A DNA stretch of 52,735 nt from a phage. The notes below the pieces were generated by a model that was given only the letters and a program-made list of their open reading frames with translations, ran no database searches and was not told the DNA's origin. Positions 1 to 52,735 of the stretch are shown here, one piece after another (position 1 is the first letter of the stretch; each line of letters starts with the position of its first letter). The position numbers and the translations under genes were made by a program. Where the stretch lies: sequence record PZ662386.1, one strand, 5' to 3'.

Positions 1-31
1 ATCTGGCCTCCTATCTTATTCGGAGTCGCTT

Positions 32-217
32 ATGCGCACAATACAATGTCCCAACTGCCATTATGAAATTGCAGAAGATGATTTCATAACGCAGCAATGT
101 CCTATCTGTGATTCATATATGCCGCTAAACCGCCTGTATTTAAAGGCCGATTCTGGTTTAGGCAGCATCATTCGCATCAATCCCGTGCAAACTCAGCCAT
201 TAGTGGATTGTGATTAA
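32..217 (+). CDS. small zinc-ribbon protein, function unknown
   Basis: 61-aa ORF with two CxxC pairs (CPNCH...CPICD). Confidence 0.35.
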   Translation: MRTIQCPNCHYEIAEDDFITQQCPICDSYMPLNRLYLKADSGLGSIIRINPVQTQPLVDCD

Positions 218-236
218 AAACAAAGAGAACGAATCA

Positions 237-2255
237 ATGTCAAAGACTGATGACCTCGGACCGGAGTTTAATGATACAGTAGCCTCGTATCTTGCCAAGC
301 ACTACGGTGACGTATTAAAAGTCTCAAGAGAAAGATTCTGTATTCTATCTTTGCCATTGCTCCGTCGATATATTTCAGAAAATACTGCAATAGTTGACAG
401 CTATGAAGAACAAATTCAAGCAGAGTTAGAAGGCCAGGGTCTTGAAAACGATGCTGTATTGCGTTCCGTTTTCAGAGCACAACTTGAGCGTCTTCGCTCT
501 GGCGACAAGAAAGACTCAACTGCCTATGCAGATGAGTTGAAGAAAGGTATTCAAGCAGGTGTTACTGACCGTGTTGCAGGTTCCACATTGGAGGAGCCAA
601 ACTCGGAGCATGATAACACCGATGAACTTGTAGACAAGATTCTGCATGACCCACATAACGTGGACCCAACTGTAATCCCTGCCAAGGTTGCAGAACGTGT
701 TCGCAAAATCTTGATGAAAAGTTTCGAAGCCTTTGGTAAATGGCAGTTCCATATTCAAATGGGATTTCCATTTCAAGCACAAGACTTTCACGATGTGATA
801 TTCAATGTTGGTCAGAAGGTTGTTGATGGTGAGATTGACCGCTTAATAGTGACCATTCCTCCACGACACTCTAAGACTCAGCTTATGAGTATTGCATTGC
901 CCTTGTATTCATTTTGCCACAATGAATCAAGCCATAACATTATCACCTCGTATGCAGAAGACGTTGTTCTTGAATCGAGCGGTTACATCCGTGCTGTAAT
1001 GATGGACCCACTATTTCAACGCATATTCCCGAAGGTGAGAATCGACCCTAACAAACGTTCTCTTGAACGCTGGGGTACAACCAAAGCTGGAGTTATGCAC
1101 GCAGTACCTACTGGTGGTAAGCTAACTGGTAAAGGTGCTGGACTTCTTGTTGCAAAATACTCCGGCTGTTTCGTGGTGGATGACGTTATCAAACCGAAAG
1201 ATGCCTACTCTGACACAGTTCGAGCAGAAATCAACGACCGATTCGATAACACCTTTATGTCACGTCTTGCCAACGATGGTTGCATAACTGATTCATACGG
1301 AAACCAAATTAAGTGTGCCCGTACACCAATGGTTATCATCATGCAGCGAGTTCATGACCAGGATTTAGTTGGTTACATACTCCGTGGTGGCTCTTCTGAC
1401 AAATACCATTATCTCAATATCCCAGCGATTATTGAGAAAGGAGTTGGAAGTGCTGAATGGTATGATAAGTTAATCAAGAAGCAGAACTACACTCACGCTA
1501 TTCCCATTCTGTACAATTTGAACAGGAAGGAAGAGAAGTCTGCATTATGGCCTTCACGTAAGAGTTTAGAATCTCTGGAGGCGATGAAAGAGTCTAACCC
1601 ATACACATACAATTCACAGTATGCTGGCGACCCATCTGCACAAGGCCACGGCCTTATCAAAGAAGATTGGTGGCAAGAGTATGAGCCAGACGTTTTCGAC
1701 AGAAGTCGCGTAGTCAGAAGTTTTATCACAGCGGATACGGCATCAACTGCCAAATCCTATTCTGATTATTCGGTCCTTAAGCATTGGGGCGTGACTAAAG
1801 AGCGTGATGTTTATTGTTTAGATATTATGCTCGGTAAGTTTGAAACTCCAGAACTCAAGACTGCTATTATCGACTTCTGGAACAAATGCAACAAGTTGGA
1901 CTTGAAATGTGTAGGTTGTATTCCTCGTGCATTGTACATGGAAGACAAGTCTGCTGGACAATTCTTGAACCAACAATTTATTAGAGATGGGAGTGTCCGA
2001 GTTTTACCGCTGCCTCGTGATGGCATTAATGGTAATGACAAGGTAACTCGATTCCTTAACGCAATCCCATATTTCTCGCAAAAGAGAATATTCTTCCCTG
2101 CTGGTCATGAACACATTGACCACGTTAGACGTGAAATACTTGGATTCACTTCTTTGGGTAGTGGTACTGGACACGACGATTGCGTCGATAACGTTTCAGA
2201 TATGGTTGCAATCGAATTCTCTGGCCCAAGTGCCAACTACTCCGCATGGATGTAA
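237..2255 (+). CDS. terL: terminase large subunit
   Basis: P-loop-like IPPRHSKTQ, Walker B-like FVVDDV, C-terminal nuclease-like ITADTA and GHDDCVDNVSD motifs; sits before portal; alternative GTG start at 210. Confidence 0.85.
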   Translation: MSKTDDLGPEFNDTVASYLAKHYGDVLKVSRERFCILSLPLLRRYISENTAIVDSYEEQIQAELEGQGLENDAVLRSVFRAQLERLRSGDKKDSTAYADELKKGIQAGVTDRVAGSTLEEPNSEHDNTDELVDKILHDPHNVDPTVIPAKVAERVRKILMKSFEAFGKWQFHIQMGFPFQAQDFHDVIFNVGQKVVDGEIDRLIVTIPPRHSKTQLMSIALPLYSFCHNESSHNIITSYAEDVVLESSGYIRAVMMDPLFQRIFPKVRIDPNKRSLERWGTTKAGVMHAVPTGGKLTGKGAGLLVAKYSGCFVVDDVIKPKDAYSDTVRAEINDRFDNTFMSRLANDGCITDSYGNQIKCARTPMVIIMQRVHDQDLVGYILRGGSSDKYHYLNIPAIIEKGVGSAEWYDKLIKKQNYTHAIPILYNLNRKEEKSALWPSRKSLESLEAMKESNPYTYNSQYAGDPSAQGHGLIKEDWWQEYEPDVFDRSRVVRSFITADTASTAKSYSDYSVLKHWGVTKERDVYCLDIMLGKFETPELKTAIIDFWNKCNKLDLKCVGCIPRALYMEDKSAGQFLNQQFIRDGSVRVLPLPRDGINGNDKVTRFLNAIPYFSQKRIFFPAGHEHIDHVRREILGFTSLGSGTGHDDCVDNVSDMVAIEFSGPSANYSAWM

Positions 2256-2257
2256 AT

Positions 2258-2470
2258 ATGGCGGTTATCACTCGATTAGATGCCCGCTCACGCAAGAACA
2301 ACTCCTTCCAGATTCAAGATTTGGAAGGAAACATTTTATGTGTGATTGAGGCAGTTTCTACCACAGAGAGCGACTGTGTTAAGTTAAAGCACGAGTCAAA
2401 TCTGCGACTCCACACCTCCGACAACATTCAAATTGTTAAGGGTAATGGAACTATTCTAAGGAAGAAATAA
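2258..2470 (+). CDS. small head-tail joining protein (lambda gpW-like position)
   Basis: 70-aa ORF between terminase and portal, start and stop coupled by overlap (TAATG with portal); call by position only. Confidence 0.35.
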   Translation: MAVITRLDARSRKNNSFQIQDLEGNILCVIEAVSTTESDCVKLKHESNLRLHTSDNIQIVKGNGTILRKK

Positions 2471-3786
2471 TGACTTCCAAGAAGAAAAACAATCTTTCTG
2501 TTAAAGTTGCAGATGGGTTAGAAAACCTTGTAACAGGGTTGGGCGGTCAGGCAGATAAGTCCACCTTTAACCAGTGGACTTTCTCAAACAAGAACGCGAA
2601 CTATCGCGAACTTATGAACCGCTTCCGTGAGGATTGGGTGGCACAGAAGGTGTGTACCGTTATTCCTCAAGATATGACGCGTAAGTGGCGACATATTGAT
2701 AGTGAAGAAGGACGCAAAGCGGATAAGAAACTTCGTATTCGTAAGCTGTTCCGTGAAGCATATCAATGGGCCAGATTATATGGGACTTCATTTGTTCTGC
2801 TCGACCTAAAAGGTACGGGCAAACTTGATACACCATTGCGACTGGATAACTTGAAGACTGGATGTATTAAATCCATGAGAGTTATTGACCGCTCACGCTT
2901 ATTTGCCGCAGGGACTATGGTTCTGGACCCTTTGAGTCCTCACTATGGTTTGCCAGAGTATTACACTTTGGCTGGGTATCCCGGCTATATCCATTACACT
3001 CGTTTCCTCCGGTTCGAGGGTACTGAACTGCCGCTGTTCGAATTCCAACGTAACATGTGGTATTCTGATTCGGTACTTATTCCACTGCTGAAAACGATTG
3101 ACCAATTCTATACAACTGCTGCTGCTGCTGCCAGCCTTGCCCAAGAAGCCACCATTGATGTGGTAACTGTTGAAGGTCTACAATCGCTGCTTACATCACC
3201 AGAAGGTGAAGCTGCTGTGATGAAGCGCTTCAAACTTATGAAGCTGGCAAAGAGTATTTATAACGTCTTAATTCTCGACAATACTGAGAAGTATGACACC
3301 AAGTCAATTGCACTATCTGGTGTGAAAGATTTGATTTGGGAATACTTGAAGATAGTTGCTGCCGCAGTTGGTATTCCGGCTACACGTTTCCTTTCTGCAT
3401 CTCCGGACGGTATGAACGCTACGGGCGAATCTGACCTCGTAAACTATATCGACTTGTTGACTGGCTTGCAGACTTCTGTGTTCGACCCTCGTTTAGATGT
3501 GGTAGACAAGATTGTCCAAGCGCACTTTGGCATTGAAGAATATAACTACGAATGGTTAGACATCTTCCCTGAATCCAATGTTGAGAAAGCGAAGCGAGCT
3601 AAAGATTTGGCATTTGCTGTTGACCTGCTGGTTAACAACGGTACTATTACTACCGAAGTTGCAAACGAAGTCATGTTCCATTCGGGCGTGTTCGGAACTT
3701 GTGACCTTGGCAAACCAAATCCTAATCCACCTAACATCCAAAAGGGTAACGCAAGTGAAGCAAAACCAAAACCTGGTTCAGCTTAA
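2470..3786 (+). CDS. portal protein
   Basis: 438-aa ORF directly after terminase, RBS GGAAG, size and position typical of portal. Confidence 0.7.
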   Translation: MTSKKKNNLSVKVADGLENLVTGLGGQADKSTFNQWTFSNKNANYRELMNRFREDWVAQKVCTVIPQDMTRKWRHIDSEEGRKADKKLRIRKLFREAYQWARLYGTSFVLLDLKGTGKLDTPLRLDNLKTGCIKSMRVIDRSRLFAAGTMVLDPLSPHYGLPEYYTLAGYPGYIHYTRFLRFEGTELPLFEFQRNMWYSDSVLIPLLKTIDQFYTTAAAAASLAQEATIDVVTVEGLQSLLTSPEGEAAVMKRFKLMKLAKSIYNVLILDNTEKYDTKSIALSGVKDLIWEYLKIVAAAVGIPATRFLSASPDGMNATGESDLVNYIDLLTGLQTSVFDPRLDVVDKIVQAHFGIEEYNYEWLDIFPESNVEKAKRAKDLAFAVDLLVNNGTITTEVANEVMFHSGVFGTCDLGKPNPNPPNIQKGNASEAKPKPGSA

Positions 3787-4819
3787 CGACGAAGATACCG
3801 TGAATGAAGTAGTTTTGTTGAACGACAAGGCTACTTTAACGACCCGTCGTTTACGTGACTCTGGCGAAATGATTGCAGAATGCACCATCGCTCGTACTGG
3901 CATTATGCTGTACAAGGCAAAAGAGCTTGGTGAAATTGCAAAACATCTGGACCCAGAATCTATTTGCCGTGTTCGTACCAAGCCGGAAGTATTATTTGAC
4001 GAAGCAACTATTGAAGGCTGTCGTTCAATTCCGGTTACTATCGGCCATCCGAAAAATGATGTTAACATCAAGAACAACAAAGAACTCCAGAAAGGGTTCA
4101 TCGAAGGGCGTCCGGTTGCAGACGGTTCTTTCTTGGCTGCATCAATCGTTTTGAATGACGAGCAAGCTATTCGATTAGTTGATTCTGGTGTTGACCAAAT
4201 CTCCTTGGGCCATAATGCTGAACTGGCTGTATCAGAAGATGATGAAGCTGACTTCGATAAAGTTCGCATTATCCCTAACCATGCTGCAATTGTTGTTCGT
4301 GGTCGTGCTCAAACTACCCGCATTGGTGACTCTGGTGAAGAGATTGCCATTGTTGATAAGGCAACCTTTGACGTTGTTGAAGCAGAGCGTGATGCAGCGC
4401 TTGACAAGATTAGCGCCCTTGAGCAGAAACTTGCTGATGCAGAAACTGCACGACTATCCGATGAAGCTATTCAGGCTGAGGTAGACAAACGTGTGGTTGC
4501 TCGTACAGCGCTGCTTGTTGATGTGGCACGTCTTGGCGACGAGTTCTCCAACCTCGATTTCTCCGGCAAAACCGATGCAGAAATTAAGTTGGCTGTAGTT
4601 AATAAATTGCATGACAAGGATTTCAGCGATAAGAGCGAAGACTATATCTCCGCCCGTTTCGATGCGGCTCTTGAAGATTGCGATTCCATTACTTTGGGAG
4701 ATGCCCTGAATCAGTCTATGCAATTCTCTGCTAAGAAAGATTCAGAAGCTCGCAAACCTAAAGTTTCTATTTCCGAAGAAGCTAACAAACGTCGTTTAGA
4801 ACGCTTCAACTCTTTATAA
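3755..4819 (+). CDS. prohead protease / scaffolding protein (putative)
   Basis: Position between portal and capsid genes; C-terminal coiled-coil (ERDAALDKISALEQKLADAE); likely GTG start at 3755 with AGGG RBS; the ORF-track start at 3578 lies inside portal. Confidence 0.5.
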   Translation: MKQNQNLVQLNDEDTVNEVVLLNDKATLTTRRLRDSGEMIAECTIARTGIMLYKAKELGEIAKHLDPESICRVRTKPEVLFDEATIEGCRSIPVTIGHPKNDVNIKNNKELQKGFIEGRPVADGSFLAASIVLNDEQAIRLVDSGVDQISLGHNAELAVSEDDEADFDKVRIIPNHAAIVVRGRAQTTRIGDSGEEIAIVDKATFDVVEAERDAALDKISALEQKLADAETARLSDEAIQAEVDKRVVARTALLVDVARLGDEFSNLDFSGKTDAEIKLAVVNKLHDKDFSDKSEDYISARFDAALEDCDSITLGDALNQSMQFSAKKDSEARKPKVSISEEANKRRLERFNSL

Positions 4820-4828: not shown

Positions 4829-5302
4829 ATGCCAAAGCAAGATTGGTCTATTAATACTGGTGAAGCATATGCAGGTGAACAATATGGCCTGGCTACCACC
4901 AACTCCCAGCGCCTGACTTACGTTGCCGAAGAAGAAATGGCAAACTTTGGTCTGGCTGTTGTTCAGGGCACGGCCTCTAATCAGGTTAAACCTGGTATTG
5001 AAGCAGACGGCACTGTTCTGGGCATCACCATGCGCCAGATTAACATCGAATCTGCTACCCGTCCTGGCGACGGCACTGTTGCTATCAAAGTTGGCTGGCC
5101 TCTGGGCGTTATGCTGTCTGGCCCAATCATGGTCAAACTGGTAACTGCAATCACCGATAAAGACATTGGCGTATCTGCCACTGGTCAATTCGGTGGCGTT
5201 GGTGCTGGCTATACTAAAGCAACCAACCTGACTGCCCTGCGTTATCCGGCTGCTGCTGGTGATGTTGTTCCAGTCATGATTAACGTAGTCCCAAAGCCGT
5301 AA
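4829..5302 (+). CDS. head decoration protein (putative, lambda gpD position)
   Basis: 157-aa ORF immediately upstream of major capsid gene, strong RBS AAGGTAAG, highly biased codon usage. Confidence 0.45.
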   Translation: MPKQDWSINTGEAYAGEQYGLATTNSQRLTYVAEEEMANFGLAVVQGTASNQVKPGIEADGTVLGITMRQINIESATRPGDGTVAIKVGWPLGVMLSGPIMVKLVTAITDKDIGVSATGQFGGVGAGYTKATNLTALRYPAAAGDVVPVMINVVPKP

Positions 5303-5603: not shown

Positions 5604-5624
5604 GGCGCAATTAATAGTTGCGCC
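5604..5624 (+). other. perfect 7-bp stem-loop (GGCGCAA / TTGCGCC) between decoration and capsid genes
   Basis: Inverted repeat with 7-nt loop seen directly; no T-run follows, so possibly a processing or stability element. Confidence 0.3.
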
Positions 5625-5650
5625 TCACCAAACAATATGGATTAAATTAC

Positions 5651-6658
5651 ATGCCAAAGATGATTAAACTGGCGGACGGTTCTGAATTCGAACTGAACGA
5701 CGCTATCACCCGTATTCAGGATTCTGGCACTGTTGTCCTGAATGACGACGATGCAGTATTCTTTCAACGCCAGCTTGAGTACATTGAAGCTAAAACTTAT
5801 GACACCCTGTATCCAGAATTGGAAGCTCGTGCAGCTTTCGGTGTGGATACTACTGGTGGTGCTGGCGTAAACACTCTGACCTACCGTTCTTACAACCATG
5901 TTGGTAAAGCACAGGTAATTAACGCTCGTGCAACCGACCTGCCGAAGTCCAGCATTTCTGGTAAAGAATACAGTATCCCTGTTAAATCTGTTGGTACTGC
6001 ATTCGACTACGATATTGATGAAGTGGCATCCGCTGCTGTTACTGGCCTCCCGCTGGAAACTCGTAAAGCAAATGCTGCTATTCGTGGTTATGAGCAGTAT
6101 GTTAACTCTGCTGCATGGTACGGCGATAAAGCTAACGGATTTGTTGGCTTCTTCGAAAACCCAGACATCACCAAAGCAACTGTTGCTCAGGGTGCTGGCG
6201 GTTCTACCAAGTGGGCCGAGAAGACCCCGACCGAAGTTATTGCTGACCTGACTGCTGCTGTGTCTGCAATGTATGCTTCTACTCTGAAAATCATGCGCCC
6301 AGACGAAATCTGGATGCCTGTTGAGCATGAGCAGTACATCTTCAACACTGCACGTTCTGAGCAGTCTGATAAGACGATTGGTCAATTCTTCATTGACAAC
6401 AACCAGTTCATCAACTCCCGTGACAAAATCAAGGGTCTGAACGCAATCAAAGGCCACGGCGATGCTGGTTCCGATTGCTTCGTCGTTGTTTGCCGCAATG
6501 CAATGGGCAACCGTACTTTCCGTCTGCGTGAACCTCTGCCGCTGACCTGGCAACCAGTACAGCTTCATGGTCTGGTTTATGAAGTTCCTGGCCGTGGTCG
6601 TTTCGCTGGCTTCCAAGCGATGTATCCGGCAGCAATCTCCATCAACTCCGGCATCTGA
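5651..6658 (+). CDS. major capsid protein (lambda gpE-like)
   Basis: 335-aa ORF after scaffold and decoration genes, very biased high-expression codon usage; alternative upstream start at 5618. Confidence 0.75.
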   Translation: MPKMIKLADGSEFELNDAITRIQDSGTVVLNDDDAVFFQRQLEYIEAKTYDTLYPELEARAAFGVDTTGGAGVNTLTYRSYNHVGKAQVINARATDLPKSSISGKEYSIPVKSVGTAFDYDIDEVASAAVTGLPLETRKANAAIRGYEQYVNSAAWYGDKANGFVGFFENPDITKATVAQGAGGSTKWAEKTPTEVIADLTAAVSAMYASTLKIMRPDEIWMPVEHEQYIFNTARSEQSDKTIGQFFIDNNQFINSRDKIKGLNAIKGHGDAGSDCFVVVCRNAMGNRTFRLREPLPLTWQPVQLHGLVYEVPGRGRFAGFQAMYPAAISINSGI

Positions 6659-6704: not shown

Positions 6705-7145
6705 ATGCAGATTAAGAACAACGAATCACGCAACCTTCAATTCTTCTTCTATAAGAAGGGAAAGTCTGGCAAATCTGAACTGGACTTTGTTCACATTCCT
6801 GGTGGCGCAACTGTAGAAATCGACGATGAAATCTACAAATCTCTTACGGCATCTCTGACGGAAGTTGAAGAACTGCGCGAAGAAGTGGTTCCGCTTGATG
6901 ACGAGAATATCGGTGCTTCTGTTAAGACCGGTAAAGAAGCTCTTGTCATTAAAGAGTATTACAGCACTGGCAAAACTCGCAAAGTCAACCTGGTTAAAGA
7001 AGCAATCAAAGCTGGTTCTCTTACCATTGTTGAACGTGTGAAAGTTGGTATGCCTGACATTGATGCTATTCTGACTAAGAATGGTATTGATATTAAGGGT
7101 ATGCCAGAAGACGTTAAACTGGCACTCTACGATAAGTTGGCGTAA
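6705..7145 (+). CDS. hypothetical head-associated protein
   Basis: 146-aa ORF with RBS AAGAGAAAT; position between capsid and connector genes. Confidence 0.5.
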   Translation: MQIKNNESRNLQFFFYKKGKSGKSELDFVHIPGGATVEIDDEIYKSLTASLTEVEELREEVVPLDDENIGASVKTGKEALVIKEYYSTGKTRKVNLVKEAIKAGSLTIVERVKVGMPDIDAILTKNGIDIKGMPEDVKLALYDKLA

Positions 7146-7535
7146 ATGATAACACTGACCGATTTGGTTAAACGTTATCCGGCAATGGCTGACATGACTC
7201 CTGAGCGTTTTGATATTTTAGTTGAAGATGCAAAACTTATCATGGGGACAATCGAATCGCGTTGGTGTGGGTTTTATAACCCAGCTATGGCATCACTTAT
7301 AGCGCATTGGTCTGCAACAATTGACGACTTAATGCCTGGTGATGCCGCAATGCCAGCTATGCCTGTTAGTCGTACCGATGTGGACGATGTTCAGGTAGAG
7401 TTTAGCGACCGAATCATTTCAACAATTCCTTATGTTGAAGCTGATTTCATGTCTACTGTGTACGGTCAACGTTACTTGCAATGGCGGCGAATGGCATTTG
7501 CTGGGCCGAGGGTTAGCCCTGGGTCGCAGTTTTGA
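7146..7535 (+). CDS. head-tail connector / adaptor (putative)
   Basis: 129-aa ORF in the head-tail joining block; call by position. Confidence 0.4.
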   Translation: MITLTDLVKRYPAMADMTPERFDILVEDAKLIMGTIESRWCGFYNPAMASLIAHWSATIDDLMPGDAAMPAMPVSRTDVDDVQVEFSDRIISTIPYVEADFMSTVYGQRYLQWRRMAFAGPRVSPGSQF

Positions 7536-7894
7536 TTAACCAACGTCGAGCATTTAACCGCTACACAACCACTCGTATGTATCTTGAGGTATATCAAGAA
7601 GGTTACTACGATGACAAAAATAATTGGGTTGGTGATTCATATGCTCCAAAGAAACCCATCCGATGTACTCCCATACCTTATGGTGACAGGGATTCTGGCG
7701 TAAGCGGCCAATCGCTTAAAGCTACAGAAGTCGGAGAGCGCCAACCTGCATTCATGCAAGTACATTCCCGAACTGAAATGCCGATGAAGTCTATCCTAAC
7801 TATCTACGGCCTTCGTTATAAAGTTATTTCTGTTTCAGACTACAAGGCAGCTGGATTCTTTGAAGTCATTGCTGCTAAGGAGCTAGAGAAATGA
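7532..7894 (+). CDS. hypothetical head-tail joining protein
   Basis: 120-aa ORF overlapping neighbours by 4 nt; TTG start. Confidence 0.4.
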   Translation: MINQRRAFNRYTTTRMYLEVYQEGYYDDKNNWVGDSYAPKKPIRCTPIPYGDRDSGVSGQSLKATEVGERQPAFMQVHSRTEMPMKSILTIYGLRYKVISVSDYKAAGFFEVIAAKELEK

Positions 7895-8403
7895 TTTATG
7901 ATGAAGATATTCAGGCGATGAAGGATATTGTGGACGTCTGTGTTGGCGTCCCACGCTTCTCTTATGAGATGCAGATAAACGCACCTCGACCATCTGATAA
8001 CTATGCCGCAATAAAATGTGTGTCGTCAGTTAATCCAGGCTTTGATGAAACTCGAATCGAAGTACGCGATGGTGAGGAGGTATTTGTTACGAGAGGGATT
8101 CGAATCTTAACTTTCTATATTCTCTTCTCACGTCGTGGGAGTGAATATGTTAAGTTTGATAATTCCTTCTTCCGTCCAGATGTTCAGGCCATGCTTAAGA
8201 GCAAAGGCTTTGCGACACTTGACAAAAATCCACTGAATCTTGCCTCGTTAACTCTTGAGACGAATTGGGAATTCCGAGAAGGAATCCAAATCAAATTCAA
8301 TGTTCTACGTGAAGACGTAATGAGCATTGGAACAATGTCTGACGCCAGTGTTGGCGGCAAATTCTACGACGGTGGTGAACCCATCCTAATTAAGGGAATC
8401 TAA
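7891..8403 (+). CDS. neck / tail completion protein (putative)
   Basis: 170-aa ORF with RBS AAGGAG, immediately before sheath gene. Confidence 0.4.
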   Translation: MIYDEDIQAMKDIVDVCVGVPRFSYEMQINAPRPSDNYAAIKCVSSVNPGFDETRIEVRDGEEVFVTRGIRILTFYILFSRRGSEYVKFDNSFFRPDVQAMLKSKGFATLDKNPLNLASLTLETNWEFREGIQIKFNVLREDVMSIGTMSDASVGGKFYDGGEPILIKGI

Positions 8404-39226: not shown

Positions 39227-39227
39227 A

Positions 39228-39902: not shown

Positions 39903-39931
39903 GTCGTTTGACGAATCAGAGCAGTTCTGAA

Positions 39932-39949
39932 ACATTAGTTGGATGTGGA
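39932..39949 (+). promoter_or_regulatory. conserved promoter-like motif
   Basis: ACATTAGTTGGATGTGGA preceded by TTCTGAAAC; 77 nt upstream of the acidic-protein gene. Confidence 0.4.
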
Positions 39950-40025
39950 AAGAGAAAGGCTCTTTAATTTTATCTAAGTCACGTCACCGTGGCGTGCAAA
40001 ACTATTCAATATAAGGTATATACAA

Positions 40026-42541: not shown

Positions 42542-42967
42542 GTGCCCACCAAATACGGAGACGCTCGAACTTCCAACCACCGCTGGGGAAGTAGAAGTTT
42601 GTAGAACTCCGCCATTTTCCTAACAGTTATGCCTCTGTTCAAAAGGCTCATGTAAGCGTCTGGCATACCGTAGCGATACGGCTTAGTTGCGCTGATTGTG
42701 ATGTGTCGAAAGAAAGTTCAGGCTTTCGTTTGAGTTCCTCCTCATCTCGAAGTTAGCTGTATTCAAAATACAGACTATGTTCCTATTCACATGAAATATG
42801 CAAGTCAGGGTTCTTAATGTTCAAACATGATGCGAGCATTAAGCGGGTTTATACTTTCCCCGATGGTCCCCATAAACAAGGTTGATTCACTTGGGCGGTT
42901 CGAATCAAATTTAATAAGTGTTTTGTAATAGTCAGGGCACTTACTTAAATTTTAACTGGAGAGAAAC

Positions 42968-43904: not shown

Positions 43905-45671
43905 ATGATGAACGTTAAGCAATGTGTGGCTAAGATTAAGCACGATGTACCAGACTGTAAATCCACATCTGGCAAGTCTTTACAGGTTTGGTTGAATGTC
44001 GATGAAGCTGGTAATAAGAATTTTTCTGGTTACTGTTTTGCATGTGGCGTTCTAGTACCAAATCCTTATGGCAATAATCCGGAGAACATTCCAGAGATTA
44101 AAGTCAAAACTCCTGAAGAAATTCAGGAAGAAGTTGATGAAATCACTGCTTGTCCTCCGTTTGATTTAACCCATCGCAGCATTGAGCCAGAATTTTGGAA
44201 AGCTGCTGGTGTTCGACTTCTGTATTCAGAGTATGATGGAAAGACTCCAAATGCTCTGGCACATGGCTACACCAAAAATGGTAAACTTGTTCGTTGGAAG
44301 ATTAAACTTCTGAACAAGAAGGTTATGTGGTCAGTTGGCGACACCCAGGGTAACGACCCTTACAACTGGATGGCTGCAAAAGCAATTGGCGGTAAGACAC
44401 TGTTCATCACAGAAGGTGAAGAAGACTGTATCGCATTGCGCCAAATCCTCAAAACTATGAACCGTGGTGGTGCATACGAAGATTTGGATTTTGCTGTAAT
44501 TAGTTTGAGTGACGGAAGTGATTCCGTACACAAATGTTTGTCACCAGTTGCAGAAGAAATTAAGCAACGTTGGGAACAGGTTGTTATCGTATTTGATGAT
44601 GATGAACCTGGACGTAAAGCTGCAAAAGAAGCGTGTCGATTGTTGCCTGGCGCAATGATTGCAACACTTCCAGCTAACGATGCCAACGATTGTTTGAAGC
44701 GTGGCTTGCTCAAAGCTACTCAATCTGCTGTTGTGTTTCGTGCTGCTCGACCTTTGCCAACTGCCCTTGTCGATAAAAAGCTTCTTATGGAAGAACTGGA
44801 CGATGAAGTTGAGCAAGGTGTTGACTACCCTTGGACGCGAATGACTGAGCTAATGTTTGGTCAACGTCGTGCTGAGGTAATCACAATTGGTGGTGCAGAA
44901 GGTGGCGGTAAGACTACTATGTCTCGCCAGATTGTACACCACAACATTGTCCAGCATGATTGGGGAGTGTTCACAGCGTACATGGAAGAGCCTCCATCCG
45001 AAACATTACGCCGTATGGCTGGCCTTAATGACAACTTGCCATATTGGGAGCCTGCGTTCACTCGCGAAGACCCTCGATATGATGAAGCGAAGTTCCGTCA
45101 AACTGCTGCGAAGATGCTTCGTAACATGGAGATTTGGGACCGCAAGCAAGCTGGAGAAGACCCTTATGAAACCTGGGATGGGTTAAAGACGATTCTTCGT
45201 CAGATTGGACCAGACATTGATATGTTTGTCCTTGATAACTTAACCTACTTATCGGAAGGGATTTCTGCCTCAGAGAAGAACGACTTCTTAGGTAAGCTGT
45301 ATGCAGATATTACTAAGCTGGCAGACCAATATCAGTTCCATGTAAATATCTTGTCGCACCTTAACCCTGTGGCAAAAGGTCAACGACCTCATGAGGATGG
45401 TGGACGTATTAAGAAGTCAGACTTTACTGGCTCCCGTGCTGCTGCTAAATATTCTCATGGCATGTTCGGCTTTGAGCGTAATAGCCAGGCAGTTGACCCA
45501 AACTGTTCTATCATTCGTTCCATTAAGGCTCGTAAGAGTGGTAAAACAGAAGGCTTCAAGACATACTACGACACCGAATCCGGTCGAATCATCCAACGTT
45601 CTTGGGATGACTCACTGTTCGAAACCAAAGAGATTGTTCAACTCACTAAGAAGAACGGTCCACACCAATAA
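43905..45671 (+). CDS. primase-helicase (T7 gp4-like)
   Basis: N-terminal Cys zinc motif, TOPRIM (ITEGEEDCIAL, VFDDDEPGRKA), Walker A GGAEGGGKTT, Walker B MFVLDNLT. Confidence 0.85.
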   Translation: MMNVKQCVAKIKHDVPDCKSTSGKSLQVWLNVDEAGNKNFSGYCFACGVLVPNPYGNNPENIPEIKVKTPEEIQEEVDEITACPPFDLTHRSIEPEFWKAAGVRLLYSEYDGKTPNALAHGYTKNGKLVRWKIKLLNKKVMWSVGDTQGNDPYNWMAAKAIGGKTLFITEGEEDCIALRQILKTMNRGGAYEDLDFAVISLSDGSDSVHKCLSPVAEEIKQRWEQVVIVFDDDEPGRKAAKEACRLLPGAMIATLPANDANDCLKRGLLKATQSAVVFRAARPLPTALVDKKLLMEELDDEVEQGVDYPWTRMTELMFGQRRAEVITIGGAEGGGKTTMSRQIVHHNIVQHDWGVFTAYMEEPPSETLRRMAGLNDNLPYWEPAFTREDPRYDEAKFRQTAAKMLRNMEIWDRKQAGEDPYETWDGLKTILRQIGPDIDMFVLDNLTYLSEGISASEKNDFLGKLYADITKLADQYQFHVNILSHLNPVAKGQRPHEDGGRIKKSDFTGSRAAAKYSHGMFGFERNSQAVDPNCSIIRSIKARKSGKTEGFKTYYDTESGRIIQRSWDDSLFETKEIVQLTKKNGPHQ

Positions 45672-45736: not shown

Positions 45737-47671
45737 GTGTTGTATCCTTGGGAAAATATGTACGCCAGTGACATTGAAACAACTGGCCTGTTGGAGCAAA
45801 TGCGCAAGCAAGCTGCACCACGTCTTCACAACATCGGGCATATTGATGTTCTAACTCGTGAAGAAACTGTAATAGAGTGGACCGACAGAAAGTCTATCCA
45901 GGCATTTCTGGATACAGGCCCGACACTAATCATGCACAACGGCGCAACCTTTGACTTCGAAGCACTGAGGTTCCTGGGCTACGACGTTTCAAAATGTACC
46001 TTAATTGATACTTTGTTTATCAGTTGGTATCTGCAACCTCGTCGTGTTAAGCACGGCTTAGAAGGTTACGGCGAAGAGTTTGGTGTGCCAAAACCGGTCA
46101 TTGAAGATTGGGAAAATCAAACTCAAGAAGAGTACAACCATCGTGTGATGGAAGACTGCAAGATTCAGTTGAAGCTGTGGGAACAGCAATACATTCAACT
46201 CTTGAAGATTTATAAATCTCCTGGCGAAGTTAAACGCTTCGTTGAGTACCTGATGACAAAAGCTCGTCAGCAAGTTATTCAACAACGTACTCGCTGGAAG
46301 TTGAACATTGAGAAGGCATTGGCATTTAAGGCCAAGCTGGAGCCAATGATTAAAGAGAAGACGGACGCATTGGAAGCATCAATGCCGCGTGTTCCAGAGT
46401 ATGTTATCAAAACCCGTCCAGCTAAATGCCACAAGATGAATGGGCAACTGTCTGCCACTGGAATTAAGTGGAAGGCTATTTGTGATGCGAACGGCTTGGA
46501 CTGGAAAGACCCAGACCTGGCTATAAAAGTTCTTAAAGGTTACAAGAAGCCTAATGCTGGTTCACATGTTCAAATCAAAGATTGGTTGTTCAGCCTAGGT
46601 TGGGAACCAGAAACCTTTAAGTTTGACCGCAACAAGGAAACAGGTGAAACTCGCCAGATTCCACAAATCACTGTGAAGGATGAAGATGGCAATCCTGAAA
46701 TATGTCCGAGCTTGCATAAGCTGGCGGAAAGAAACCCCGACTCTGGTATTCAACATCTTATTGGGATGGGCGTGTATAAACACCGTCTGTCTGTTGTTAA
46801 TGGCTTCCTTCGCGACGTCGATGAAGATGGGTTCCTTACTGCACGATGTGGTGGCCTTACCAATACTTTACGCCTTAAACATCGCGAACTTGTTAACCTC
46901 CCTTCTATTCGTGTATTTGGCGGTGAAGAACTGCGTTCAATGTTGGAAGCGTGGCGTGAAGACTACGAACAGTTAGGCTCTGACTTATGCTCTCTGGAAG
47001 ACCGCTGTAAGCACCACTTCCAGTGGATGTATGACCCTGAATACGTTAAGAAGCAGCTGGCACCAGACTACGATGCTCACCTTGCAATCGGCGTAATTGG
47101 TGGATTTATTACAGAACAGGAATCTCAGGACCACAAGGACGGGATTAAGAAGTGTAAACAACGTCCAATGTTTAAGACCACAAACTATGCTTGTCAGTAT
47201 GGTGCTGGTGTACCAACTGTAGCTCGTTCTGCTGGCTGTGACCAGACTACTGCTGCACGACTGCATAAAGCATATTGGGACTTGAACTGGTCTATTAAAG
47301 AGATTGCTGCAAACACCAAAGTTATCACAGTTGATGGTCAGATGTGGCAACAGAATCCAGTAAACAAATTCTGGTATTCATTGCGTACAGAGAAAGACCG
47401 CTTCTCCACATTGTGTCAGGGTACTGGTGCATATGTGTTTGATGTTTGGTGTAACAACATCATTGCAATTTGTAATGAACGTTGGGGCTGTGACCCACTT
47501 CTGTCCGGACAATTCCACGATGAATTGATTCTCCAAGTTAAGAAAGGTTTCCGTGATTTGTGGACGGACTTGCTTAATGAGGCAATGGACCGAACCAACA
47601 AAGAACTTAAACTTAACCGTGATTGTGCATGTGATGTGCAGTTCGGTGATAACTACGCGGAGATTCACTAA
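45737..47671 (+). CDS. DNA polymerase, family A, with 3'-5' exonuclease domain
   Basis: Exo motifs DIETTGL and HNGATFDFEAL; Pol motif B KTTNYACQYG; motif C QFHDELIL; GTG start. Confidence 0.85.
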   Translation: MLYPWENMYASDIETTGLLEQMRKQAAPRLHNIGHIDVLTREETVIEWTDRKSIQAFLDTGPTLIMHNGATFDFEALRFLGYDVSKCTLIDTLFISWYLQPRRVKHGLEGYGEEFGVPKPVIEDWENQTQEEYNHRVMEDCKIQLKLWEQQYIQLLKIYKSPGEVKRFVEYLMTKARQQVIQQRTRWKLNIEKALAFKAKLEPMIKEKTDALEASMPRVPEYVIKTRPAKCHKMNGQLSATGIKWKAICDANGLDWKDPDLAIKVLKGYKKPNAGSHVQIKDWLFSLGWEPETFKFDRNKETGETRQIPQITVKDEDGNPEICPSLHKLAERNPDSGIQHLIGMGVYKHRLSVVNGFLRDVDEDGFLTARCGGLTNTLRLKHRELVNLPSIRVFGGEELRSMLEAWREDYEQLGSDLCSLEDRCKHHFQWMYDPEYVKKQLAPDYDAHLAIGVIGGFITEQESQDHKDGIKKCKQRPMFKTTNYACQYGAGVPTVARSAGCDQTTAARLHKAYWDLNWSIKEIAANTKVITVDGQMWQQNPVNKFWYSLRTEKDRFSTLCQGTGAYVFDVWCNNIIAICNERWGCDPLLSGQFHDELILQVKKGFRDLWTDLLNEAMDRTNKELKLNRDCACDVQFGDNYAEIH

Positions 47672-51145: not shown

Positions 51146-51764
51146 GCGATTAGCTGTTATTCTTAATGGACCTCCTGGCTGCGGTAAAGACACCATTGCA
51201 AATAAGATTGTTGCTGCCGAGGAACCATACTTTCTCGGTAAGCGCAAGTTCATTAAACACCAGTTTAAGGATGCACTGTATGAGCATACTGCCAAACACT
51301 TTCAAGTTGATGTGGACAAGTTTATCCACTACGCTTCGGACCGTGACCTCAAAGACTCTATCTCCCTTGCAGGTCTTGGTGGCAGAACACCTCGTCAGGC
51401 TCTTATTCACGTTAGTGAAGACGTGTATAAGCCTCGCCACGGACAAGACTACTTCGGTAAGGTTGAAGCTGCTCGTGTTAAAGAACTCGCGGGGCGTATG
51501 GGTGGCATTATTAATGTCATTTATCCCGATGGCGGTTTTGGTGATGAAGTCGTTGCCATTGAGTCTGCTTATGATTTTGTCCTCGTTGTGCGTTTGCATC
51601 GTGATGGTTTTGATTTCACGGGCGATTCTCGCAGATACATCAACCTCCCAGACACACCTACCCGCGTAACAGTGGACGAACATTTAGTTGATGGTAAAGT
51701 GGGTGATTCTGTATTCAAAGTGTTCAACTGGATTGAACGCGTAACTTATCAAGTAGAGAAATAA
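51138..51764 (+). CDS. P-loop nucleotide kinase (dNMP kinase-like)
   Basis: Walker A NGPPGCGKDT; TTG start with GAGGAAAG RBS (ORF-track start 51036 lies inside ligase). Confidence 0.5.
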   Translation: MIKRLAVILNGPPGCGKDTIANKIVAAEEPYFLGKRKFIKHQFKDALYEHTAKHFQVDVDKFIHYASDRDLKDSISLAGLGGRTPRQALIHVSEDVYKPRHGQDYFGKVEAARVKELAGRMGGIINVIYPDGGFGDEVVAIESAYDFVLVVRLHRDGFDFTGDSRRYINLPDTPTRVTVDEHLVDGKVGDSVFKVFNWIERVTYQVEK

Positions 51765-51766
51765 TC

Positions 51767-52363
51767 ATGTCTTGTATGACCCAAGTTGTTGCAGTTAAAC
51801 GAGTGCATCCTAATGCGAAATTACCTGTGTACGCTACTGTTGGCGCTGCTGCTGCTGACGTTTGCACTATCTCCGATAGCACTGTTGTTATCAATCCCGG
51901 CTGCTCTGTTGTTTTCGATACTGGCCTCCAATTCGAGATTCCAACTGGATACGAACTCAAAGTACATAGCCGTTCTGGTCATGGCTTTAAGTCTGGCATT
52001 CGCCTGGCAAACTGCACAGGAATTCTGGACTCCGATTATCGTGGCAATCTTATGGTTAAGTTGCACAACGATTCGGACACAGCCTTTGTGGTTCAGCCAG
52101 GTGAACGTATTTGTCAAGTGCAAGTTAGTAAAGCTACTCAACACCATTTCGTCGAAGTTGACCGCTTGAATGCAACTGGTCGTGGCGAAGGTGGGTTTGG
52201 CTCAACTGGTCGTGTAGAACTTGGTCAGTACGAAAGACCACATATTCCTGACGGTTCACACTCACACAGCATCTCTGTTGCTGGCGATGGTGGTGTGAAA
52301 GTGTCTTTGCCAGGAACTGTTGAAATCGGTGCCCACACTCACGGGGCCGAACGTTACAAATAA
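51767..52363 (+). CDS. dut: dUTPase with C-terminal extension
   Basis: All five dUTPase motifs (RSG, GILDSDYRGNL, ERICQ, RGEGGFGSTGR) plus ~45 extra C-terminal residues containing SHSHS and AHTHG. Confidence 0.85.
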   Translation: MSCMTQVVAVKRVHPNAKLPVYATVGAAAADVCTISDSTVVINPGCSVVFDTGLQFEIPTGYELKVHSRSGHGFKSGIRLANCTGILDSDYRGNLMVKLHNDSDTAFVVQPGERICQVQVSKATQHHFVEVDRLNATGRGEGGFGSTGRVELGQYERPHIPDGSHSHSISVAGDGGVKVSLPGTVEIGAHTHGAERYK

Positions 52364-52381
52364 ATCTGGAACCTATCTGAA

Positions 52382-52711
52382 ATGAAACTGTCCTCACCTG
52401 TTGTAGTAAATAACCGCAAAGTTAAATTTGCATATCTCAAGTCTAATGTCACCTCTACTGGTGGCGGGACTTATCTCACCCGTGCACTTGCAGTTCGCAA
52501 CGAAACAGGTGCGGATGTTATCGTTTTCATGCTTCCTCATGGTGAAAACACAATCAAGAACGTCGAACGTATCAAGCGTGGGCGCGAAGATTTAATGTCG
52601 GCTGTCAAGCCGCTGATACTGCCATTTAAGATTGTGGTGGTTGTTGGTTCTACCCAAGCATATCTTGAAGATTTCTATAAAGATATGGCCTGGAGCGATA
52701 TTAAATATTAA
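52382..52711 (+). CDS. hypothetical protein
   Basis: 109-aa ORF after dUTPase; followed by AGGGAGG RBS for a gene beyond the window. Confidence 0.45.
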   Translation: MKLSSPVVVNNRKVKFAYLKSNVTSTGGGTYLTRALAVRNETGADVIVFMLPHGENTIKNVERIKRGREDLMSAVKPLILPFKIVVVVGSTQAYLEDFYKDMAWSDIKY

Positions 52712-52735
52712 GCGACACGCATAATTAGGGAGGCT

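Follow-up and report, generated by a model that had tools for sequence, protein, structure and literature searches.

The window, by which we mean the whole 52,735-nucleotide stretch of phage DNA analysed (record PZ662386.1), opens with a run of head genes; these, like the other genes described below unless a strand is stated, lie on the + strand. A terminase large subunit (TerL; 210..2255; phrog_38, E 3e-96; Pfam Terminase_6C), which has 99% amino acid identity to its counterparts in phages DE15 and GJ1 and no match to lambda gpA, precedes a 74-aa ORF upstream of the portal gene (2246-2470; phrog_12735, of unknown function), a portal protein (2470..3786; Phage_portal_3, E 3e-75), a prohead protease-like protein (3755..4819; DUF2213, E 1e-30; phrog_530 "head maturation protease", E 9e-72), a capsid cement or decoration protein (4829..5302; Phage_cement, the family of E217 gp24 and Pam3 gp6, E 1e-16) and the major capsid protein (5618..6658; Major_capside, E 3e-48; phrog_264). 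The protease-like gene probably starts at GTG 3755, following the annotation of GJ1 gp51. Head-tail connector genes and a tail terminator (6705..8403; DUF4054, Phage_tail_terminator_9) lead into the tail module, where the sheath (8404-9852; phrog_205 "tail sheath", E 2e-101; DUF3383; best solved match, the Pam3 sheath) bears out the contractile tail of the original prediction. Beyond it lie a tube-like protein (9863-10318), so named from the place of its gene, a KPP10_Orf10 match below threshold and a match to phrog_280 "virion structural protein"; a tail assembly chaperone (10330-10788; Phage_TAC_15); and a protein of 1242 aa (10948..14676), whose size and place after the chaperone suggest a candidate tape measure, and which contains an internal YqaJ-type nuclease domain (nt 12349-12759; YqaJ, E 4e-13) and, at its C-terminus, a domain of the lytic transglycosylase type (nt 14125-14406; SLT, E 5e-13). 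Baseplate and tail-fibre genes (14749..23617; Dit_like, DUF2612, Laminin_G_3, Gp10_C, and a sub-threshold Pam3_gp18) end in a distal tail fibre (22577-23617) only 69-72% identical to those of DE15 and GJ1.

The head genes had been described as lambda-like. Their order (TerL, 74-aa ORF, portal, protease-like, cement, capsid) does parallel lambda A-W-B-C-D-E, but the parallel does not extend to homology: when lambda Nu1, A, W, B, C, Nu3, D, E, FI and FII were compared with the window proteins, none gave a significant match (best E above 0.1), and the cement protein had no match to gpD. We take Terminase_6C, Phage_portal_3, DUF2213, Phage_cement and Major_capside not to be the Pfam families of the lambda proteins. 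As judged by these comparisons, the likeness of the head to lambda is one of synteny, without detectable homology. Among solved structures, the portal comes closest to the Pam3 portal (E 5e-37) and E217 gp19, and the capsid to chain 8hdt (E 3e-32), an entry deposited under the name "Major capsid" that, from neighbouring entry codes, we take to be the Pam3 capsid. Because head and tail proteins share Pam3 and E217 as their nearest solved relatives, the structural half is not in itself a lambda/myovirus mosaic; head and tail instead form one coherent myovirus module.

Downstream of the fibre genes is a lysis cassette comprising a holin (23626-23967) and an endolysin (23985-24539; Hydrolase_2), the latter annotated in DE15 as a SAR endolysin. 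The predicted resemblance of the holin to lambda S was confirmed, both by its family (Phage_holin_3_1, PF05106 "Lysis protein S", E 7e-8) and by a direct match to S (phmmer E 7e-8; BLASTP 27% over 73 aa). Apart from this cassette, at a separate locus, lies an overlapping Rz/Rz1-like spanin pair (41544-41780 and 41704-41913; phrog_1026 "Rz-like spanin" in a pooled scan; Mangalitsa gp37/gp38 annotation). The gene for a ribonucleotide reductase small subunit (24539..25639; Ribonuc_red_sm, E 3.5e-48) borders an AT-rich region (25640..26302, +) predicted to be an early control region with sigma-70-like promoters, in a place equivalent to that of a host promoter annotated in GJ1; the count of sigma-70-like sites near the RNA polymerase gene was not above that in shuffled sequence. 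This region contains a 26-nt tandem repeat (25987-26038) and the conventional record start of relatives, DE15 position 6 corresponding to window position 25673. The single-subunit RNA polymerase that follows (26303..28243; 646 aa; RNA_pol PF00940, E 1.5e-18; phrog_414, E 1e-97) had been called T7-like, which holds for the family, whereas its pairwise likeness to T7 RNA polymerase is marginal (E 0.003 in a search of PDB; 24-27% identity in two segments). It aligns with positions 154-816 only of the phrog_414 profile and has a shorter N-terminus than the T7 enzyme (646 vs 883 aa), and is shown to be a divergent, N-terminally short single-subunit enzyme.

Directly 3' of the polymerase gene is an intrinsic-terminator-like hairpin (28251..28278, +; a 12-bp stem with 6 G-C pairs, then a T-run). 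Both gene and hairpin fall within a region (26090..28698) that blastn mapping places, by homology, as the counterpart of the direct terminal repeat annotated in Mangalitsa, described in the Mangalitsa paper as 3,234 bp long with the polymerase gene at its start. It is present as one copy in the assembled window, and the left genome end is probably near 26090. A 19-nt promoter-like motif, AACATTAGTTGGATGTGAA, has its best copy at 28359..28377 and others starting at 14707, 26218, 33519, 37689, 37830 and 39931; every copy is on the + strand, and nearly all are intergenic. There are seven matches (0.03 expected), and the motif is the top direct-repeat family in the window. In GJ1 it is what has been annotated as "putative phage promoters"; the motif is a predicted promoter, and according to the ICTV profile the promoters of Chaseviridae "have not yet been identified".

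An early/middle region of about 45 small ORFs (28410..40364) yielded Peptidase_M15_4, ArdA, SSB and anti-restriction families in pooled Pfam and PHROG scans; with coordinates taken from the DE15 and GJ1 annotations, these families place an SSB at 33609-33965, an M15 peptidase endolysin at 36126-36542 and an ArdA-like antirestriction protein at 36759-37388. Beyond lies a tRNA-like gene (41269-41363) whose acceptor stem is 7 bp long and whose T arm is canonical, while its D region has extra nucleotides. It scores 27.9 bits with the Rfam tRNA model, just under the 29-bit gathering score, and is detected by ARAGORN only in intron mode; its equivalent in SA91KD scores 45.6 bits, and in GJ1 and ST32 the corresponding gene is annotated as "tRNA-Arg", which the ST32 paper also reports. 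This gene, an ORF-poor conserved block of about 1 kb (41985-42967) and the circular permutation discussed below were features absent from the original prediction. Two candidate small ORFs on the - strand also lie in this gene-poor stretch (41860-42129 and 42153-42413), and one or both may be real; some depositors have annotated their equivalents (Mangalitsa gp39, DE15 gp40).

An ORF-free block at 42623..42906 (+) is conserved across Chaseviridae genera and is predicted, with strong covariation, to form a pseudoknotted multi-helix RNA. In the model, an H-type pseudoknot stands at the 5' side (42623-42647) and positions 42658-42667 pair with 42797-42806 in a long-range helix; one hairpin is of the GNRA kind (42668-42681), another (42729-42751) has UUCCUCCUCAU as its conserved loop, and a 3' hairpin (42884-42906) and several variable hairpins make up the rest. 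When 19 distinct sequences, drawn from several genera, were aligned, 90.7% of pair cells were paired, compared with 30-46% in slid controls, and 69 cells showed double changes, compared with at most 16. The element had no match in Rfam and is present in 56 phage records, all Chaseviridae-like. This conserved folded RNA of about 285 bases looks to be the sole undescribed item in the genome.

Replication and nucleotide metabolism genes occupy the remainder of the window. A flavin-dependent thymidylate synthase ThyX (43254..43904; Thy1, E 1.6e-42) adjoins a bifunctional primase-helicase (43905..45671; Toprim, DnaB_C) whose top PDB matches are T7 gp4 structures, nearly full length (E 5e-30), and which has 26% identity to T7 gp4A over 495 aa. 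These are followed by a family A DNA polymerase (45737..47671; DNA_pol_A, E 8e-11; 22% identity to T7 gp5 over 354 aa, E 1e-7), for which a sequence search of PDB gave no match at E 0.01 or better; a 5'-3' exonuclease (FEN; 48803-49864; 5_3_exonuc_N; T7 gp6, E 0.006); an ORF labelled HNH endonuclease-like solely from the annotation of GJ1 gp41, in which Pfam found nothing (49876-50400); an ATP-dependent DNA ligase (50390-51145; DNA_ligase_OB_2; T7 ligase, E 6e-6); and a dUTPase (51767-52363; dUTPase). The T7-like primase-helicase, Pol A, exonuclease and ligase anticipated earlier were all recovered by the Pfam, PHROG and T7 comparisons, and together with the SSB this replication set is shown, at the level of protein sequence, to be remotely homologous to that of T7.

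By analogy with T7 and from the annotations of depositors, host sigma-70 RNA polymerase would transcribe the phage polymerase gene, which sits in the terminal repeat between the AT-rich promoter region (about 25.77-26.04 kb) and what is predicted to be a strong terminator (28251-28278). The phage polymerase might then read the remaining genome left to right from AACATTAGTTGGATGTGAA, present in at least seven copies, the gp4/Pol A machinery would replicate the DNA, and the Terminase_6-type TerL would package a molecule that is not permuted and carries terminal repeats some 3 kb long.

The claim that every credible gene is on the + strand is sustained: 92 non-overlapping + strand ORFs cover 91.7% of the window, most - strand ORFs of at least 60 aa lie largely within + strand genes, and the ten largest or least-overlapped of these had no credible PHROG match. 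Cumulative GC skew rises monotonically along the window, and the ST32 paper describes a single orientation for all ORFs of ST32 and GJ1. We likewise agree that the phage is virulent, as scans of the ORFs turned up no family of integrases, recombinases, excisionases or HTH repressors. By homology to Mangalitsa, the linear phage genome is taken to be terminally redundant and the window to be a circular permutation of it, the record having been opened arbitrarily just upstream of the terminase gene; the end (52735) and start (1) of the window adjoin in DE15 (28092/28093).

Comparison with deposited genomes identifies the sequence as the complete genome of an E. coli phage that is virulent and belongs to Carltongylesvirus, a genus in the family Chaseviridae. 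It is collinear with upwards of 20 deposited Carltongylesvirus phages, sharing 91-97% identity along the full length; by megablast, 22 phage records cover at least 80% of one half of the window and 34 at least 80% of the other. The best of these, DE15 (NC_079184), has 96.7% identity over 99% of one half and 94.9% over 92% of the other (95.9% with 96% of the window aligned by reciprocal blastn), and phiEcoM-GJ1 (NC_010106) has 91% identity over 90% of the genome. Counterparts in DE15 were found for 87 of the 93 + strand ORFs, 73 of them at 90% amino acid identity or more, including the RNA polymerase (100%) and the terminase and capsid (99% each). The records of GJ1, DE15, Mangalitsa and SA91KD are classified under Chaseviridae, Cleopatravirinae, Carltongylesvirus; Bp10, Bp7 and ST32 are, with SA91KD, other close members. 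In our own VIRIDIC-like estimate, similarity to the window is 91.4% for DE15 and 81.7% for GJ1, and since every database record compared in full falls below the 95% species cut-off, the phage is not identical to any named one and represents at most a new species. The genus having already been described, the genome is ordinary as a finding.

The published hallmark of Chaseviridae is a myovirus tail with a single-subunit RNA polymerase and one transcription direction, and the ICTV profile describes lytic myoviruses of 52-56 kb with such a polymerase, their own DNA polymerase and helicase/primase, and terminal repeats about 3 kb long; the pairing of contractile tail and T7-type RNA polymerase has been in print since 2008 (phiEcoM-GJ1; Jamalludeen et al. 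2008). The suggestion of a new or poorly characterised lineage, in which a lambda-type head and lysis module came together with a contractile tail and a T7-type module for transcription and replication, could draw on the head gene order, the holin of the lambda S family and the T7-related primase-helicase, Pol A, ligase and RNA polymerase. The combination of contractile tail with T7-type genes does stand, but the lambda-like head does not, with portal, capsid, cement protein and sheath all pointing to Pam3/E217-type myoviruses, and the full-length matches lie in an ICTV-classified genus treated in several papers, so that the label of a poorly characterised lineage is wrong; we consider such an origin very improbable. 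The "mosaic" is an ancient, stable architecture of the whole virus family rather than a recent recombinant.

Even less credence is due to an assembly chimera of two phages, in which the structural half of a myovirus was joined to the replication half of a T7-like phage. The slight difference in composition between halves (GC 0.39-0.42 at 28-38 kb, 0.44-0.49 elsewhere) would fit one, but the identical collinear arrangement recurs in dozens of independently sequenced isolates, and the junctions at 52735/1 and about 25.6 kb are both contiguous in DE15. A temperate element or prophage with lysogeny genes too divergent to recognise has scarcely any probability either: one of the roughly 45 small early ORFs without assigned function could in principle encode a novel repressor, but the relatives were isolated as lytic phages, and searches of bacterial genome contigs with the RNA-element core pattern gave short local matches only and no full element, which weakly and indirectly argues against this reading. 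We are nearly certain that a strictly lytic E. coli myovirus of Carltongylesvirus (Chaseviridae, Cleopatravirinae), with phiEcoM-GJ1 as prototype, best explains the window as a whole.

Set against known systems, this lytic myovirus has in common with lambda the head gene order and the PF05106 holin; it differs in its head proteins, in lacking a siphovirus tail, int, xis and cI, and in having spanins that are not adjacent to the holin and endolysin. With T7 (Autographiviridae) it shares a single-subunit RNA polymerase near the left end, a remaining genome read one way, the gp4-type primase-helicase, Pol A, FEN exonuclease, ATP ligase and direct terminal repeats, but homology is only remote (22-27% identity), T7 has a podovirus tail, T7 gp8, gp10A and gp19 have no significant match to the portal, head and terminase proteins of the window, and the window-type repeat is about 3 kb and holds the polymerase gene. 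Two myoviruses with solved virion structures, cyanophage Pam3 and Pseudomonas phage E217, are the nearest solved relatives of the portal, of the sheath (E 2e-17) and probably of the capsid, and their Pfam families take in the cement protein and, below threshold, one baseplate protein; the relationship is only at protein-family level, hosts differ, and to our knowledge neither has a T7-type RNA polymerase and replication module. DE15, collinear over the whole genome, differs in its distal tail fibre (69% identical) and in several insertions missing from the window, including an HNH gene and a 282-bp duplication, while the window has unique small ORFs (33244-33477, 35032-35301, 36551-36841) and carries short insertions at two places, near 42.3 and 42.55 kb. 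GJ1, of the type species Carltongylesvirus GJ1, carries three HNH homing endonuclease genes (gp34, gp36, gp47) that are missing from the window, and its tape-measure-like protein is only 75% identical, but it has the architecture and order of genes seen in the window, the promoter-like motif and tRNA-like gene, and coding in a single orientation.

Nucleotide comparison places this phage within an established genus. When the two halves of the window were used to interrogate 50,697 phage records by megablast, both returned collinear, near full-length matches to more than 20 members of Carltongylesvirus. The top record, Escherichia phage vB_EcoM_DE15 (DE15; NC_079184), matched bases 1-25000 at 96.7% identity over 99% and bases 27736-52735 at 94.9% over 92%, and was followed by Bp10, Bp7, SA91KD, ST32, flopper and the type phage phiEcoM-GJ1 (GJ1; NC_010106); these relatives are recorded under Caudoviricetes; Chaseviridae; Cleopatravirinae; Carltongylesvirus, with GJ1 as the species Carltongylesvirus GJ1. 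Jamalludeen et al. 2008 is said to be the founding paper, and members of the genus are in use for E. coli biocontrol work. By our own VIRIDIC-style estimate from reciprocal blastn, intergenomic similarity was 91.4% to DE15 (96% of the window aligned, with 95.9% identity in the aligned part) and 81.7% to GJ1 (90% aligned, 91.0% identity), values that correspond to relatedness at genus level, for which ICTV practice takes about 70% or more nucleotide relatedness over the genome. Assignment to an existing species calls for >95% nucleotide identity along the whole genome, and DE15, the closest of the records collected up to August 2025, lies below this at 91.4% by our own estimate, DE15 and GJ1 being those compared in full and TH53, Bp10, Bp7, SA91KD and ST32 having a product of coverage and identity below that of DE15 by megablast only; the window may therefore represent, on this sequence comparison, a further species of Carltongylesvirus.

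Positions 28092 and 28093 of DE15 correspond to window positions 52735 and 1, and the DE15 record starts at about window 25,640-25,673. Because the window ends are adjacent in DE15, the window is a complete genome whose arbitrary opening point lies just ahead of the terminase gene. Its 52,735 bp, with one repeat copy, and GC content of 44.2% lie within the family range of 52-56 kb and 39.3-52.5% G+C. Of 93 candidate + strand ORFs, 87 have a protein counterpart in DE15, and for 73 of these identity is at least 90%; identities to DE15 and GJ1, respectively, are 99% and 99% for the terminase, 99% and 96% for the capsid, and 100% and 92% for the RNA polymerase (RNAP). The original prediction had described a lambda/T7/myovirus mosaic that may represent a poorly characterised lineage, naming close full-length matches to a well-described genus as what would speak against this. 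The observation was for the most part right; reading it as a poorly characterised mosaic lineage was not borne out, since just such matches were found and the phage is a member of a well-described genus. Among database records related to these enterobacterial phages, PP952070.1 ("Staphylococcus phage Pel53", host Staphylococcus hyicus) shows 88-89% nucleotide identity to them; the host given there is probably mistaken, or else the phage derived from an enterobacterial contaminant.

The head genes are ordered TerL, 74-aa ORF, portal, protease-like, cement and capsid, in parallel with lambda A-W-B-C-D-E. The proposed "lambda-like head" holds for this gene order but not for homology, as ten lambda head proteins compared with all window ORFs by phmmer and BLASTP gave no significant match; a Lambdavirus head module, in which terminase, portal, protease, decoration and capsid correspond to lambda A, B, C, D and E, was accordingly not found. 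Pfam domains of the module are Terminase_6C, Phage_portal_3, DUF2213, Phage_cement (E217 gp24/Pam3 gp6) and Major_capside. Sequence searches of the PDB gave no match with TerL; the closest solved structures for portal and sheath were those of cyanophage Pam3, with E217, another myovirus of solved virion structure, second for the portal, and the best capsid match, chain 8hdt, is one we take to be probably Pam3 as well. With portal, sheath and probably capsid nearest to Pam3/E217, head and tail are thus, judged from these matches, one myovirus-type module of the Pam3/E217 kind rather than a lambda head joined to a foreign tail. The practical correction is that a gene order like lambda's is no evidence for lambda ancestry.

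A predicted contractile tail, also part of the original description, agrees with a sheath gene matching phrog_205 (E 2e-101), for which the Pam3 sheath is the best solved match. At gene level this tail sheath marks a myovirus, as in Chaseviridae. Autographiviridae combine a podovirus structural module with a single-subunit RNAP; the RNAP is present here but the tail is contractile, and head, portal and terminase proteins have no significant match to T7 gp8, gp10A or gp19. The 1242-aa tape-measure-like virion protein encoded at 10948-14676 (+) contains an internal YqaJ-type nuclease domain (about 12349-12759, E 4e-13), which is lambda-exonuclease-like and unusual in such a protein, together with a C-terminal lytic transglycosylase (SLT; about 14125-14406). 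Between the cement and capsid genes, the 282-bp segment 5307-5588 has two tandem alignments in DE15, which means that a small head-module gene holds a variable number of copies: ORF 5323-5595 encodes 90 aa in the window versus 184 aa in DE15, and the region is unannotated in GJ1. The most diverged large gene is that of the distal tail fibre (22577-23617, +), with 69-72% amino acid identity to DE15 and GJ1, while its neighbours are 97-100% identical to DE15; this divergence is consistent with host-range switching by fibre exchange.

Identification of a holin of lambda S type was upheld by PF05106 (33.2 bits against a cut-off of 23.8) and by a phmmer match to lambda S (E 7e-8). Lysis genes occur at three loci, 23626-24539, 36126-36542 and 41544-41913: the holin and a Hydrolase_2 endolysin follow the tail fibres at the first, a second endolysin (Peptidase_M15_4) lies among middle genes at the second, and the spanins are 5 kb further on at the third. 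The M15 endolysin, between SSB and primase-helicase, occupies the position of T7 lysozyme (gp3.5).

The phage encodes its own DNA polymerase (Pfam DNA_pol_A) and helicase/primase (Toprim and DnaB_C). Matches to T7 proteins range from 26% identity over 495 aa for the primase-helicase and gp4, with T7 gp4 structures as the top PDB matches (E 5e-30), through 22% over 354 aa for Pol A and gp5 (E 1e-7) and 25% over 147 aa for the ligase and gp1.3 (E 6e-6), to E 0.006 for the exonuclease and gp6 and 24-27% in two segments (E 0.002) for RNAP and gp1; a PDB sequence search with the DNA polymerase gave no match. The RNAP is recognized by Pfam RNA_pol (E 1.5e-18) and phrog_414 (E 1e-97); at 646 aa it aligns to phrog_414 only at profile positions 154-816, so its N-terminus is short. 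The RNAP and replication genes described as T7-like are therefore present, but the weak pairwise matches and the shortened RNAP limit the likeness to remote homology at family level. A ribonucleotide reductase small subunit gene lies at 24539-25639 (+) with no large-subunit gene in the genome; its product presumably partners the large subunit of the host, or serves some other purpose.

Sequence upstream of the RNAP gene (26303-28243) is AT-rich and contains a 26-nt tandem repeat as well as sigma-70-like hexamers, although sigma-70-like sites near this gene are not enriched relative to shuffled sequence; a strong terminator-like hairpin (28251-28278) lies directly 3' of it. A 19-nt motif, AACATTAGTTGGATGTGAA, occurs in seven copies against 0.03 expected, all on the + strand, starting at 14707, 26218, 28359, 33519, 37689, 37830 and 39931, mostly ahead of gene blocks, and is the motif that the GJ1 annotation calls "putative phage promoters"; according to the ICTV profile, promoters of Chaseviridae have not yet been identified experimentally. 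The same profile describes non-permuted linear genomes with terminal repeats of about 3 kb, and the paper and record of Mangalitsa, another Carltongylesvirus phage, give a 3,234-bp terminal repeat, determined by PhageTerm and starting with the RNAP gene, which maps to window 26090-28698, present in one copy. Repeated motifs of 29-30 nt (TTATTCCCAATATTGCTACAATATT and others) are found at 25744-25772, 25931-25959 and 28303-28331, and also at 28328/28989, with T-runs at 25905-25940; these repeats and long T-runs lie on either side of the RNAP gene, close to where the terminal repeat is predicted to begin and end, and may be linked to end formation or early promoters.

By analogy with T7, the phage RNAP would be expressed by host RNA polymerase and would itself go on to transcribe middle and late genes in a single direction. 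Replication would proceed by means of the gp4-like primase-helicase, Pol A, FEN exonuclease, ligase and SSB, with dNTP supply supported by ThyX, dUTPase and the RNR small subunit, and TerL would package the non-permuted, terminally redundant genome.

Coding on one strand, as originally proposed, was confirmed: 92 non-overlapping + strand ORFs cover 91.7% of the window, cumulative GC skew rises monotonically along it, and the promoter-like motif is confined to the + strand. Most - strand ORFs of at least 60 aa lie largely inside + strand genes, and ten - strand ORFs, including all those lying in gaps, have no credible PHROG match. The ST32 paper reports one orientation for all ORFs of ST32 and GJ1, and a tRNA-Arg. 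The only serious challenge to strict unidirectionality is an 86-aa - strand ORF at 42153-42413, open in five genomes, also across an in-frame 75-nt insertion, with an annotated equivalent in Mangalitsa gp39; it has no family match and no conserved start, and the underlying DNA is 99-100% identical. Likewise in accord with the initial description, no integrase, recombinase or repressor family was found in any scan of the window ORFs, a gene content that suggests a lytic lifestyle.

About 1 kb (41985-42967) between the spanin genes (41544-41913) and a small ORF before thyX contains no + strand ORF of more than 41 aa and was left unannotated by most depositors; nearly all deposited genomes are blank over 42623-42906. 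A comparable gene-poor gap occupies the equivalent place in Faunus (Faunusvirus), 4HA13 (Sabourvirus) and PP101 (Suwonvirus); parts of the region are more conserved than coding sequence, and blocks of it can be aligned in other genera at 75-97% identity. Within the block 42616-42912, alignment with other genera reveals invariant single-stranded motifs between hairpins whose sequence varies while pairing is kept. From this pattern we predict that 42623-42906 (+) encodes an undescribed structured RNA of about 285 nt, specific to Chaseviridae, a proposal to which we assign an even chance.

The modeled RNA begins with an H-type pseudoknot (42623-42647), in which stem S1 (ACAG/CUGU) is interleaved with S2 (GCCU/AGGC). 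A long-range helix, P2, pairs 42658-42667 with 42797-42806 (GUCUGGCAUA/UAUGCAAGUC) and closes a multi-hairpin domain comprising the GNRA hairpin P3 (42668-42681; CCGUA-GCGA-UACGG), the variable hairpin P5 (42707-42728), P6 (42729-42751; UUUGAG/CUCGAA), which bears an invariant 11-nt loop, UUCCUCCUCAU, with an anti-Shine-Dalgarno-like CCUCC, and P7 (42757-42773), also variable and missing in one lineage. A core nearly invariant in sequence (42777-42813) is followed at 42813-42873 by the variable hairpins P8 and P10, the latter inside P9, and by the 3' hairpin P11 (42884-42906). In most lineages a second CCUCC lies just 5' of the pseudoknot.

Covariation was assessed in 19 distinct sequences, those from other genera being 60-72% identical to the window, with a control in which 3' partners were slid by 1-3 columns. 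In the proposed structure, which was derived from the same sequences, standard pairs occupy 90.7% of pair cells, versus 30-46% in the slid control; 23 pairs are changed on both sides (3-9 in the control), as are 69 cells (4-16). Across 500 shuffles of the alignment columns, the values seen for percentage paired, for pairs and cells with a double change and for covariation score were never attained; further pair types were unexceptional in number, with 84 of the 500 shuffles matching them. Both pseudoknot stems are 100% paired, with compensatory changes, and P2 switches from C-G to U-A in four sequences. Frequent G-U pairs favour an RNA from the + strand. Independent minimum-free-energy folds of the middle segment recovered the P5/P6/P7 layout in most lineages, and folding of the block as a single sequence gave stability no greater than that of shuffles (z +0.35). 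The variable hairpins are partly misaligned because the alignment is MAFFT-based.

The element is present in 56 phage records, every one of them Chaseviridae-like, as well as in viral and metagenomic contigs of the same Chaseviridae-like character, with a diverged copy in a Loessnervirus phage. Contigs of bacterial genomes yielded only short local matches and not the element, and a ThyX-anchored search for more distant loci returned contigs from outside Chaseviridae that lack it. Rfam 15 gave no gathering-level match in the whole window and none over 42623-42906 at E up to 10, and a literature search found no link of Chaseviridae to ncRNA, non-coding RNA or riboswitch. Two sets of matches were set aside: an exact 17-mer, CACATGAAATATGCAAG, in unrelated viral contigs lies in a protein-coding context (...HMKYA...RRETW...), which we take to be that of class II ribonucleotide reductase, and was judged a coincidence amplified by a large gene family; and six metagenome matches (Ga03079xx contigs) were low-complexity junk.

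The candidate could be a stable non-coding RNA. Alternatively, it could act in cis as a leader, pairing with ribosome-binding sites to control how the downstream replication operon is translated; that the exposed CCUCC sequences, in the P6 loop and 5' of the pseudoknot, pair with Shine-Dalgarno sequences is offered as a hypothesis only. Growth of these phages is best at low temperature, which makes a role in temperature sensing conceivable, although this is pure speculation. To our knowledge, complex folded RNAs of about 285 nt are rare in phages, and we know of no promoter or regulatory RNA yet defined experimentally in Chaseviridae.

The gene-poor stretch and its surroundings also hold tRNA-like elements. 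ARAGORN at default settings and Rfam at gathering thresholds reported no tRNA and no RNA family in the window. At relaxed settings a tRNA-like gene is seen at 41269-41363 (+), whose 7-bp acceptor stem and T arm are perfect; it has extra D-region nucleotides and an Rfam tRNA score of 27.9 bits (cut-off, 29 bits), and in GJ1 and ST32 it is annotated as tRNA-Arg. The SA91KD counterpart is 6 nt shorter and scores as a bona fide tRNA, called Ser(gct) by ARAGORN. A second tRNA-like sequence (42291-42357, +; Rfam tRNA-Sec, 18.8 bits, E 0.93) lies within 75 nt of inserted sequence that GJ1, DE15, Mangalitsa and SA91KD lack, and has an acceptor stem (GGGAUUU/AAAUCCC) and T arm (CUGG-UUCGAUU-CCAG) without normal D and anticodon arms. 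An ARAGORN "tRNA-Tyr with 48-nt intron" at 42223-42359, obtained at a relaxed threshold, was rejected for acceptor-stem mismatches. In PM1 the equivalent region carries a genuine tRNA-Cys, and the stretch may be a site of tRNA gene gain and decay.

Conserved blocks accompany these elements. The 38-nt sequence CAAATTGCTCTGGGCATAACAATTGAAATTGCTGCCTC (42088-42125, +) is 95-97% identical in Faunus and 4HA13, of different genera, and 42100-42250 is 99-100% identical in four relatives of the genus; sequence 42088-42250 is single-copy in the genome, and 42090-42300 (+), folded as a single sequence, is no more stable than shuffles (z -0.14). A further block (42455-42552, +), 77-79% identical in Suwonvirus and Loessnervirus phages, lies downstream of the spanin genes here but upstream of them in PM1 and PP101. 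Its two direct repeats, GTGCAAA(G)TGTCAGTCAC, 49 nt apart (42475, 42524) and flanked by CCACCAAA, look like a putative paired binding site.

The structured-RNA candidate may be the only part of this genome that is new, and, being large, covarying and family-wide with exposed anti-SD-like loops, it could matter more than the architecture; the sequence as a whole adds at most one more species-level variant to Carltongylesvirus. The architecture is already known as a defining trait of Chaseviridae, which the ICTV profile describes as lytic myoviruses of Gammaproteobacteria with linear, terminally redundant, non-permuted genomes of 52-56 kb, encoding a single-subunit RNAP and a DNA polymerase and helicase/primase of their own; the number of Carltongylesvirus genomes is put at 17 in a 2026 paper. 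Compared with its relatives, the phage is distinguished by its diverged distal tail fibre (69-72% identical), by fewer HNH homing endonuclease genes than GJ1, by a few unique small ORFs, and by two short insertions in the gene-poor block at 42 kb.
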